From: Myxococcota bacterium
GTDB taxonomy: Bacteria > Myxococcota > JACRCW01
Assembly (NCBI GenBank): GCA_040752415.1
Contig: JBFMGU010000003.1
Span: 30,163 to 94,162 of the forward strand
Reading direction: 5' to 3'
Length of the DNA: 64,000 bases
A program made the position numbers and the translations under genes. A model generated the notes under the pieces. That model saw nothing but the letters and a program-made list of their open reading frames with translations, had not been told where the DNA came from and made no database searches. Each line of letters begins with the position of its first letter. Position 1 is the first letter of the stretch. Shown one piece after another: positions 9,531 through 11,594 of the stretch.

Positions 9531-11594
9531 ATGGCCACCCTCCGACTCCCTGGACTGATCGATCCCCACGTTCATCTCCGTGATCCCGGCGCCACCCACA
9601 AGGAGGACTGGGACACCGGCACCGCGGCCGCGTTGGCAGGCGGATTCACGTGTGTGCTGGAGATGCCCAACACGACGCCACCCGTGACGGACGCGGCGTC
9701 GTTGTTGCTGAAGCAGCAGGCGGCGCGAGCGCGCGCGCGATGCGACTACGGCCTGTACCTCGGCGCCGGCGAGTCGAACGTCGACGACGCTGCGTCACTG
9801 GCACCGCAGGTTGCGGGGTTGAAGTGCTACATGGACACCACGTTCGGTCCATTGAAGATCGACGGGTTGGCGGCGCTGATGGCACACGCGGCGCGCTGGC
9901 CGGCGGATCGTCCGCTGGCGTGTCACGCCGAGGGGCGCAACGTGGCGACGGCGATCCTGGTGGCGCACCTGACGGGTCGCGCGGTGCACATCTGTCACGT
10001 GGCGACGAAGGAGGAGATCGAGCTGATCCGTGCGGCCAAGAACAAGGGCCTGAAGGTGACGTGCGAGGTTGCGCCACATCACCTGTTCCTGACCGCTGAC
10101 GACGTCAAGGGAATGGGTGGTCGCGGTACGGTGCGCACGCCTCTGGCCACGGCGGCGGATCGCCAGGCGTTGCGCAACAACCTGGACATCGTCGATTGTT
10201 TCGCCACGGACCACGCGCCGCACACGCTCGAGGAGAAGGACTCCGAGAAGCCGCCGCCCGGATTCCCCGGTCTGGAGACGGCGCTGCCGCTGTACCTGGC
10301 GCTGGTGCGGGAGAAGGTGTTGACGCTGGAGGACCTGGTCCAGAAGTGCGTCGACAATCCGCGCCGGATCTTCAACATCCCCGCGCAGCCGGAGACGTGG
10401 GTGGAGGTGGATCCGGACTCGGAGTGGGAGGCGCGTGGCAAGGACATGTTCACGCGCGCCAAGTGGACGCCTTTCGAGGGATGGAAGATGCGTGGCCGCA
10501 TCACGCGCGTGGTGCTGCGCGGCAAGACCGCCTTCCACGACGGAAAAGTGCTGGCGCCGCCAGGCAGCGGGCTGGACCTGATCCGTGAGGGCATCCCGGC
10601 GCAGCCCACGGAGCAGCTCCAGCGCTCCACGCGGTTCACCGCGCCGATGGCGTCGTCGCCAGGCGGCTCGCGGTTCCACAACCAGCACATCCTGTCCATC
10701 TCCCAGTTCACACGCTCCGACCTTCAGGACATCTGTGCCGTGGCCGAGCAGATGCGCACCATGGTGGAGCTGGTGGGCACGTTTGATCTGCTCAAGGGCA
10801 AGGTCCTGGCGTGTCTGTTCTACGCGCCGTCGACACGAACGTCGTCGTCATTCATCGCGGCGATTGAGCGCCTGGGCGGCTCGGCCATTCCCATCAGCGG
10901 CGTGCAGTTCTCGTCGGTGGCCAAGGGAGAGTCGCTCCCGGACACGGTGCGCACGCTGGAAGCCTACGCCGACGTCATCGTCCTGCGACACTCCGAGACC
11001 GGCGCGGCGGCCACGGCGGCACGGTACGTCAAGAAGCCCATCATCAACGCAGGCGACGGCGTGGGCGAGCACCCAACGCAGGCATTGCTGGACCTGTTCA
11101 CCATTCGCGAGGAGCTCGGCCGCGTCGACGGGCTCACGGTGACCATGCTGGGCGACCTGAAGTACGGCCGCACCGTGCATTCCCTGGCGCGCCTGCTCTC
11201 CCTCTACGACGTGAAGCTCAACTACGTCTCACCGGAAATCCTGAAGATGCCGCCGTCCATCGTCGAGGAGCTGAAGGCGAAGGGCGTGCCGCAGCGGGAG
11301 TTCAACTCGCTGGACCCGGTGCTGGCGGAGACCGACGTGCTCTACGTGACGCGCGTCCAGAAGGAGCACTTCACGGACATGAAGGAGTACGAGTCCGTGC
11401 AGGGTTCGTACTCGATCACGTCGGAGACCATGCTGCGGGCCAAGCCGCGGATGGTGTTGATGCACCCGTTGCCGCGCGTGGGGGAAATCTCCATGGAAGT
11501 GGATAACGACCCGCGCGCTGCGTACTTCCGCCAGATGAACTACGGCCTCTACGTCCGCATGGCGCTGCTGGCCATGGTGTTGGGGAAAGCATGA
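9531..11594 (+). CDS. pyrC-pyrB: Fused dihydroorotase - aspartate carbamoyltransferase (CAD-like DHO-ATC)
   Basis: N half: [45 protein letters not shown] half: [24 protein letters not shown]. One frame with no stop; the start is uncertain (no clear SD). Confidence 0.93.

Follow-up and report, generated by a model that had tools for sequence, protein, structure and literature searches.

The window analyzed here, a stretch of 64,000 nucleotides from a genome assembly assigned to Myxococcota (GCA_040752415.1, contig JBFMGU010000003.1, positions 30,163 to 94,162 of the forward strand), carries a gene in which a dihydroorotase (DHO) domain is joined, in one uninterrupted reading frame, to an aspartate carbamoyltransferase (ATC) domain. 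This is the arrangement of the C-terminal half of CAD, a protein that is presented in textbooks as a eukaryotic invention. Both the open reading frame (ORF) and the likeness of its product to CAD are confirmed by the analysis. The gene most likely encodes a working bifunctional enzyme, pending read-level confirmation, and this enzyme probably originated through the in-frame merger of adjacent CAD-type pyrC and pyrB genes in an operon derived from Chloroflexota. Judged by sequence comparison, the fusion is a derived, single-lineage parallel to the CAD fusion and no remnant of it. The fusion alone is a modest event, in which two adjacent genes of one pathway merged once, and the wider bacterial clade of CAD-type genes is the more interesting result for specialists in CAD and pyrimidine synthesis.

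A single open reading frame with CAD-like DHO and ATC domains

The frame is open on the forward strand from 9309 to 11594, and translation from the ATG at 9531, the position at which related proteins also start, yields 687 residues without a stop (Table 1). The initial annotation of this DNA, made from the sequence alone, had described one ORF comprising DHO, a linker of roughly 30 residues and ATC, in the domain order of CAD, and this description is borne out by domain searches. The Pfam matches are Amidohydro_1 (residues 6-283), OTCace_N (385-527) and OTCace (533-682), and two NCBIfam models match the ORF above their cut-offs, namely TIGR00670 for ATCase (358 bits, cut-off 237) and TIGR00857 for DHOase (288 bits, cut-off 279). 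The more specific NCBIfam DHO models, including all the type I equivalogs, each score under their own cut-off. Glutaminase and carbamoyl phosphate synthetase (CPS) domains were not found by Pfam in the fused chain, nor does the upstream DNA contain CPS. The sequence motifs on which the annotation had relied are all present in the translation and, in HMMER alignments, are identical or nearly identical to those of human CAD chains.

Among solved structures, the best match to the DHO half is the DHO domain of human CAD, which scores 434 bits and aligns over 348 residues with a single one-residue indel. The best DHO structure from outside CAD, that of Aquifex, scores 181 bits and aligns to residues 132-337 only, with 141 bits for the inactive fungal DHO-like domain. 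The DHO half and the human domain have in common the HxH motif, the AGLK lysine, the T-F loop and DHAPH; they are also identical in the HICH and TCEVAPHH stretches, which were compared with a possible third zinc site in view. K98, the predicted carboxylatable lysine between the metals, aligns with the lysine of the human AGLK motif, and the His/Asp metal-ligand positions H13, H15, H132, H156, D227 and H231 are present. In a 20-row alignment of the short DHO type that includes deep-branching standalone forms, H13, H15, K98, H132, H153, H156, D227 and H231 are invariant. Identity to the DHO domain of fish CAD is about 57%. Residue 5 of the DHO half aligns with position 49 of the model NF003271, and type I DHO models align only from model position 36-49 onward; the DHO half starts at the CAD domain start and therefore lacks the extended N terminus seen in type I enzymes, as the initial annotation had stated.

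In the available part of a published DHO classification (PMC9771888), the long DHOases comprise a 'human CAD' subtype alongside archaeal enzymes, bacterial types I and III and inactive fungal forms, and the short DHOases comprise type II, plant and active fungal enzymes. The 'human CAD' subtype is characterized there by a small N-terminal extension, a long flexible loop and the absence of loop 5, and no bacterial CAD-type enzyme is listed in that part of the source. On the evidence of alignment and phylogeny together, the DHO half genuinely belongs to the 'human CAD' subtype.

The ATC half is also closest to CAD among solved structures. Human CAD ATC (PDB 5g1n) leads with 381 bits in an alignment of 304 residues that contains one indel, followed by the CAD-like ATC of Chaetomium (341 bits), the enzyme of Pyrococcus abyssi (338 bits) and that of Escherichia coli (about 256 bits). 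STRT, HPTQ and HPLPR, motifs for the binding of carbamoyl phosphate and aspartate, are present, and identity to the ATC domain of fish CAD is about 58%. The C-terminal tail, which the initial annotation had called CAD-like, indeed matches that of the human chain 5g1n. An HP.PRV stretch also reads as in human CAD. No PyrI was found in the genome to which the window belongs.

Table 1. Coordinates of the fused gene, its parts and the downstream genes of the operon, numbered from the first letter of the window.
Feature	Coordinates	Strand	Basis and remarks
Fused DHO-ATC gene	9531..11594	+	687 codons and a TGA stop that shares bases with the pyrF-pyrE ATG
CAD-type dihydroorotase (DHO) domain	9531..10586	+	residues 1-352; human CAD DHO match, CAD clade
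Linker	10587..10673	+	residues 353-381; putative former DHO gene end, spacer and degenerate ATC N-terminal tail
Aspartate carbamoyltransferase (ATC) catalytic domain	10674..11591	+	residues 382-687; TIGR00670, human CAD ATC 5g1n
Fused pyrF-pyrE (orotidine monophosphate (OMP) decarboxylase, then orotate phosphoribosyltransferase)	11591..12967	+	Pfam OMPdecase at residues 17-244
pyrD (dihydroorotate dehydrogenase), last gene of the operon	12967..14046	+	Pfam DHO_dh, 281 bits; start abuts the pyrF-pyrE stop

Distribution and phylogeny of the CAD-type genes

The distribution of the fusion was assessed by scanning species-representative genomes as well as metagenome contigs, and each of the two scans returned 80 related loci. 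A locus was counted as fused if its DHO and ATC matches lay in one open frame, tblastn itself reading through stop codons. Across both scans the only fused locus is that of the window. In 133 other loci a DHO gene is directly followed by an ATC gene, the two being separate genes with stop codons between them; a further 25 loci show DHO only within the stretch examined, and three have the two genes apart. Some genome and metagenome loci represent the same contig, and the 133 loci are hence not all independent. Rows that spanned query residues 1-687 were rejected as tblastn read-through, stop codons being present in each one checked. Chloroflexota account for 74 of the 80 named loci, mainly through Anaerolineae, and among 301 evenly sampled Chloroflexota genomes, CAD-type genes were detected in 36 (E ≤ 1e-95). 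No fusion was found in those 36 genomes, where three read-through matches and four same-frame cases, which were the cases covered by the fusion check, all contain stops and the rest of the matches are separate pieces. The shared open-frame lengths seen in the genomes G113, G067, G362 and G234 were no sign of fusion.

Protein searches likewise returned no fused bacterial relative. DHO-ATC proteins of about 800 residues were considered and rejected as bacterial fusions, since they begin with the end of a CPS domain and represent fragments of arthropod-type CAD. Every protein match listed at full or near-full coverage has extra N-terminal sequence or bears the name of an animal or protist, and the 11 that were read or named are without exception fragments of eukaryotic CADs. 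The DHO-ATC proteins with lengths of 650-1450 residues fall with full-length CADs and the choanoflagellate Salpingoeca. The highest identity over both halves is that of locus L012 (73%), with single halves of other loci ranging from 58 to 79%. No fusion occurs in the nearest relatives of the window sequence, which are P0112 and P0124 (both standalone DHOs), the gene pairs L012 and L005, and a standalone ATC from another genome of the same family (G001). With the nearest relatives unfused and the other pairs interrupted by stops, the fusion is therefore best regarded as a derived, lineage-specific event that parallels CAD. The proposal that it represents a minimal CAD relative or a relic of the CAD fusion is not supported by this comparison, given the stops in the 133 side-by-side pairs and in the checked Chloroflexota genomes.

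Maximum-likelihood trees of the separate halves had been suggested as a check of the relationship to CAD. In the DHO tree (63 rows, LG+C20 PMSF, bootstrap not fully settled) the DHO half falls in a CAD-type clade of 45 rows (99/98) that joins the DHO domains of eukaryotic CAD to their bacterial CAD-type counterparts, apart from an outgroup of canonical type I enzymes that includes those of the window's own phylum (100/99). Within the CAD-type clade the window groups with L012, L005, P0112 and P0124 (99/97), within Chloroflexota sequences (97/96). The branching of bacteria and eukaryotes inside the CAD-type clade has no supported order, and the AU test (p-AU 0.21) allows the 26 eukaryotic or CAD-architecture rows to be monophyletic. 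The next branches outside the clade are standalone enzymes of about 360 residues, comprising P0245, a protein from a Chloroflexota metagenome-assembled genome (MAG) and representatives of clusters with Curtissbacteria and Levybacteria proteins. This pattern suggests that the short CAD-like DHO architecture is old in the part of the bacterial tree that contains Chloroflexota, Curtissbacteria and Levybacteria. Standalone DHOs of this length lying just below the CAD-type clade include P0195, P0249 and P0198 (Candidatus Curtissbacteria/Levybacteria clusters and a Chloroflexota MAG).

In the ATC tree (109 rows, LG+G4, bootstrap not settled) the bacterial sequences form a clade (99/99) in which the window is sister to the G001 ATC (99/92) and L012 branches next (99/87). 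This clade lies inside a 90-row radiation without internal resolution, together with CAD ATCs and many standalone ATCs. The ATC half thus shares a radiation with CAD and shows no specific sister relation to it. The likeness to CAD that had been claimed for both halves is accordingly strong for DHO, on bit scores and clade support alike, and weaker for ATC, where the margin is 381 versus 338 bits. In a tree of the concatenated halves (38 rows, 660 columns), CAD-type pairs are separated from canonical pairs with support of 100/100, and all 20 eukaryotic or CAD rows fall in one clade (82/100) that takes in the long-branch CADs. The bacterial rows form a grade, without resolved order, between this clade and the canonical outgroup, and the bacterial pair is therefore not nested in the sampled eukaryotes.

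The searches also recovered full-length CAD genes, encoded as single ORFs of 2081-2224 residues, on metagenome contigs of up to 300 kb (P0137, P0123, P0139, P0144, P0146, P0318, P0364 and others), several of which group with the choanoflagellate Salpingoeca. A long-branch CAD group (P0137 and similar) lies outside the eukaryote clade and moves inside once ATC is added; for these P0137-type CADs, the Atlas gave weak fungal leads with scores of 0.84-0.86. Two further Atlas rows correspond to clusters labelled mostly bacterial, with Pseudomonadota as the commonest phylum and scores of 0.75-0.79, and serve as a lead only. In row 8 an MGS-like domain occurs together with an amidohydrolase, and row 6 has DHOase and amidohydrolase families. 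The MGS-amidohydrolase order of row 8 is the order of the CPS tail and DHO in CAD.

The junction and the origin of the fusion

Homology to DHO stops at about residue 352 and homology to ATC starts at about residues 381-385, leaving a linker of about 28-30 residues. This length lies in the natural CAD range, the same measure giving 30 residues in P0123 and in the Paramoeba sequence P0077. The reading frame is without stops across 10400-10800, and the other two frames stop at 10579 and 10586. In relatives, the DHO ends a few residues past a G.G..(I/V)R motif, as in ...GRDVRM*, and the closest DHO (P0112, 72% identity) ends ...GTGHDIRAAEGGARN*; the window reads GSGLDLIRE at the same point and then continues. 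A Shine-Dalgarno-like (SD-like) motif lies ahead of the ATC start in 132 of the 133 adjacent unfused loci, where the distance from DHO stop to ATC start has a median of 44.5 nt (range -4 to 252 nt), and the same-family genome G001 has GGAGG ahead of its separate ATC. No such motif precedes the in-frame ATG of the window at 10647. All 19 linker codons in 10590-10646 have G or C at the third position (GC3 of 19/19), elsewhere GC3 being 0.86-0.90 in both domains and 0.73 in the upstream intergenic region. Unfused ATCs (e.g. those of L085, L049, L035, L026 and L016) carry a conserved (S)PHLPFGDQR-like N-terminal tail before the catalytic domain, for which docking onto DHO is one possible role. The tail is degenerate in the window and in G001, and part of the linker aligns with it. 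With its GC3 values and the loss of the SD-like motif, the linker looks translated. Because it partly corresponds to a former ATC N-terminal tail, its GC3 indicates coding character and provides no date for the fusion.

The donor system would be a pyrC-pyrB-pyrFE-pyrD operon of Chloroflexota, mainly Anaerolineae, in which a CAD-type pyrC is followed by pyrB. The merger would have removed the stop codon and the ribosome-binding site of the ATC gene, and it would have turned the short tail of the DHO and the N-terminal tail of the ATC into a linker of about 28 residues. A diderm host would have acquired the operon by horizontal transfer, and the operon supplies the sole ATC and DHO found in that genome. 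The product would carry out steps 2 and 3 of de novo uridine monophosphate (UMP) synthesis, its ATC domain converting carbamoyl phosphate and aspartate to carbamoyl aspartate and its DHO domain converting carbamoyl aspartate to dihydroorotate. We infer both activities, translation as a single chain and the direction of transfer from the comparisons described here. By analogy with CAD, the protein may assemble as a D3 hexamer in which ATC trimers are joined by DHO dimers, without a regulatory chain.

CAD-type genes occur in three of 61 sampled genomes of the window's phylum, namely the window's own genome, G003 of the same class, with an unfused pair, and G001 of the same family, with the ATC only. 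For the other sampled genomes of the phylum, the matches listed are ordinary pyrB and pyrC genes with 31-49% identity, and 10 genomes yielded no match at E ≤ 1e-30. Since a Chloroflexota-type operon is here found in a phylum with mostly ordinary pyrB and pyrC, the preferred interpretation is that the operon arrived by horizontal transfer and that the two genes then merged in frame locally. A PurS-PurL fusion gene downstream (14179-17046, + strand) has best named matches that all belong to Chloroflexota (64-71% identity), and the window purL is 50% identical to that of G001. The nucleotide-synthesis gene block appears to have come from Chloroflexota, and the transfer may have taken in more than the pyr operon.

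The Chloroflexota-like purL raised the question of contamination, which was ruled out by composition and by the single-copy state of the pur and pyr genes. Tetranucleotide z-scores of the contig are about 0, its GC content is 0.692 against 0.689 for the genome, and the genome contains one copy each of purM, the fusion gene, pyrFE, pyrD and purL. A host that is itself a member of the Chloroflexota is unlikely, as the genome has BamA and LpxC. On these grounds of typical composition, single-copy genes and outer-membrane markers, the contig appears native to a diderm genome.

Several observations weigh against an in-frame merger in a transferred operon, and the first of them concerns the data themselves. 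The junction rests on a single metagenome-assembled contig, a search for sequencing runs with the 2064-bp gene listed none, and no near-identical contig exists among the 160 related loci, in which the best identity over both halves is about 73%. An error of assembly or consensus, in which two genuine genes were joined by a miscalled base of the DHO stop (e.g. the GAG at 10587-10589) or by an indel, is unlikely without being negligible. It would fit with the window being the sole fused case in 134 side-by-side loci, with the derivation from one 520-contig assembly and with a DHO homology that ends exactly at the stop position of its relatives. With an indel as the cause, the DHO frame would, once shifted, extend 120 nt or more into the ATC coding region (its stops lying at 10784 or past 10800), and because no relative shows such an overrun an indel is an unlikely source of error. 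A substitution in the stop codon would give the same picture as a true fusion, but in an assembly of 11 Mb it would have to strike precisely this codon. The SD-like motif kept by nearly all relatives is moreover missing from the ATC part, and the spacer is in frame, without stops and with the coding-like GC3 described above, all of which argues against an error; the GC3 value, however, may partly reflect a former ATC N-terminal tail that was already coding. A real loss of the stop codon could also be recent and neutral or mildly harmful, with ATC made mainly from the internal ATG at 10647 and the long chain having no special role. The in-frame ATG lies 10 residues ahead of the start of ATC homology, the internal start M373 could still yield a separate ATC, and the fusion is confined to one genome. 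We consider this improbable, given the absence of an SD-like motif upstream of that ATG and the report, in the available part of a 2021 CAD review (PMC8442968), that linked CAD DHO-ATC constructs assemble and work. The fused gene is, in addition, the only ATC and DHO gene of the genome and is therefore under selection.

The history within the family is not simple, for G001 has an ATC and no DHO match at E ≤ 1e-30 in a 92%-complete genome, and its purL is only half identical to that of the window. An ancestral fusion, whereby the C-terminal half of a eukaryotic CAD or a pre-CAD DHO-ATC protein entered bacteria and was split nearly everywhere else, would account for the CAD-like domain order and sequence, and it gains from the lack of resolved branching between bacteria and eukaryotes in the DHO clade. 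It is nevertheless very improbable. The window lies deep among unfused Chloroflexota sequences in both trees (DHO 99/97 and 97/96; ATC 99/87 and 99/99), so that many independent fissions would be needed, the 20 eukaryotic or CAD rows form one clade with the bacteria between it and the outgroup, and the deeper branches of short DHOs are standalone bacterial enzymes of the Chloroflexota MAG and Curtissbacteria/Levybacteria clusters. The merger of adjacent CAD-type genes in a Chloroflexota-derived operon accordingly remains the favored explanation. Any bearing on the origin of CAD may thus lie with the unfused bacterial gene pair rather than with the window fusion. The C-terminal half of CAD may plausibly have come from the Anaerolineae-centred pyrC-pyrB-pyrFE-pyrD operon, which provides a concrete candidate donor lineage for it. 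We raise only tentatively the fuller proposal that eukaryotic CAD obtained its DHO-ATC half from the Chloroflexota-type operon, with CAD-type pyrC directly followed by pyrB, that one small mutation can convert such genes into a working CAD-like chain and that the CAD-type DHO originated in Chloroflexota or the candidate phyla radiation (CPR).

Comparison with known systems and operon context

The literature search found no paper on a bacterial CAD-type DHO/ATC pair or fusion, subscription-only papers lying outside that search. Most prokaryotes encode the enzymes separately according to the available part of PMC8442968, in which no bacterial fusion is mentioned. Like human CAD (PDB 4c6c/4by3 for DHO, 5g1n for ATC), the window chain consists of DHO, linker and ATC. 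It differs from CAD in being bacterial, in lacking glutaminase and CPS, in its location in an operon and in the independent origin of its fusion. Its linker of about 28 residues compares with 96 residues in human CAD, and a human DHO-ATC construct with the 96-residue linker forms hexamers, as reported in the same part of that review. The unfused pyrC-pyrB pair of Chloroflexota (Anaerolineae and Thermoflexales MAGs; L012 and L005) has the same gene order and is likewise followed by pyrFE and pyrD. It differs in consisting of two ORFs with a stop, an SD-like motif and a conserved LPFGDQR-like ATC tail. The same two activities are brought together in the DHO-ATC dodecamer of Aquifex aeolicus (PDB 3d6n), composed of two ATC trimers and three DHO dimers, whose DHO is of type I, being long, with Asp replacing the carboxylated Lys and with a short loop (PMC9771888, available part). 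Unlike the Aquifex complex, in which the chains are separate, the window encodes a single chain whose DHO has a Lys at the bridging position and no N-terminal extension. Fungal CAD-like Ura2 (Chaetomium; PDB 5nnl for the DHO-like domain, 5nnn for ATC) also presents a DHO-like domain followed by ATC in one chain. That domain is inactive according to the available part of PMC8442968, whereas the window DHO keeps all aligned catalytic residues. The fusion product could serve as a small, natural, CPS-free DHO-ATC protein for studying assembly of the CAD core, and the unfused sister system allows a direct comparison of linked and unlinked forms.

In the pyrF-pyrE gene downstream of the fusion, the order of domains is the reverse of that in animal UMPS. 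TIGR02127 and TIGR00336 match this gene with 250 and 123 bits, and NF004034 with 366 bits, under its cut-off of 656. The same gene follows the pair in 118-121 related loci, with no internal stop in any of 85 full-length matches, and pyrD is syntenic in 72 related loci. The three ORFs of the window operon (DHO-ATC, pyrFE and pyrD) account for five of the six activities of the UMP pathway. The genome (11.0 Mb, 520 contigs, 96.8% complete) has carB on another contig (C502). The fused ORF is the only ATC above the family cut-off in this genome and its only DHO, the other amidohydrolase match being a dihydropyrimidinase (TIGR02033, 597 bits); type II DHO is absent from the genome. Rfam returned no match, and promoter and terminator scans of 8600-14400 gave nothing above chance.

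Three neighboring or related frames were also recorded. The standalone ATC of G001 (L086), the closest to the window by tree position, is preceded by a 472-residue frame without a Pfam match. A 182-residue ORF, also without a Pfam match, lies directly upstream of the window operon at 8743-9291 (+ strand). Farther upstream, a 444-residue ORF on the opposite strand (6070-7404, - strand) contains an FGGG.RRC.G stretch, a putative cytochrome P450 haem-binding motif.

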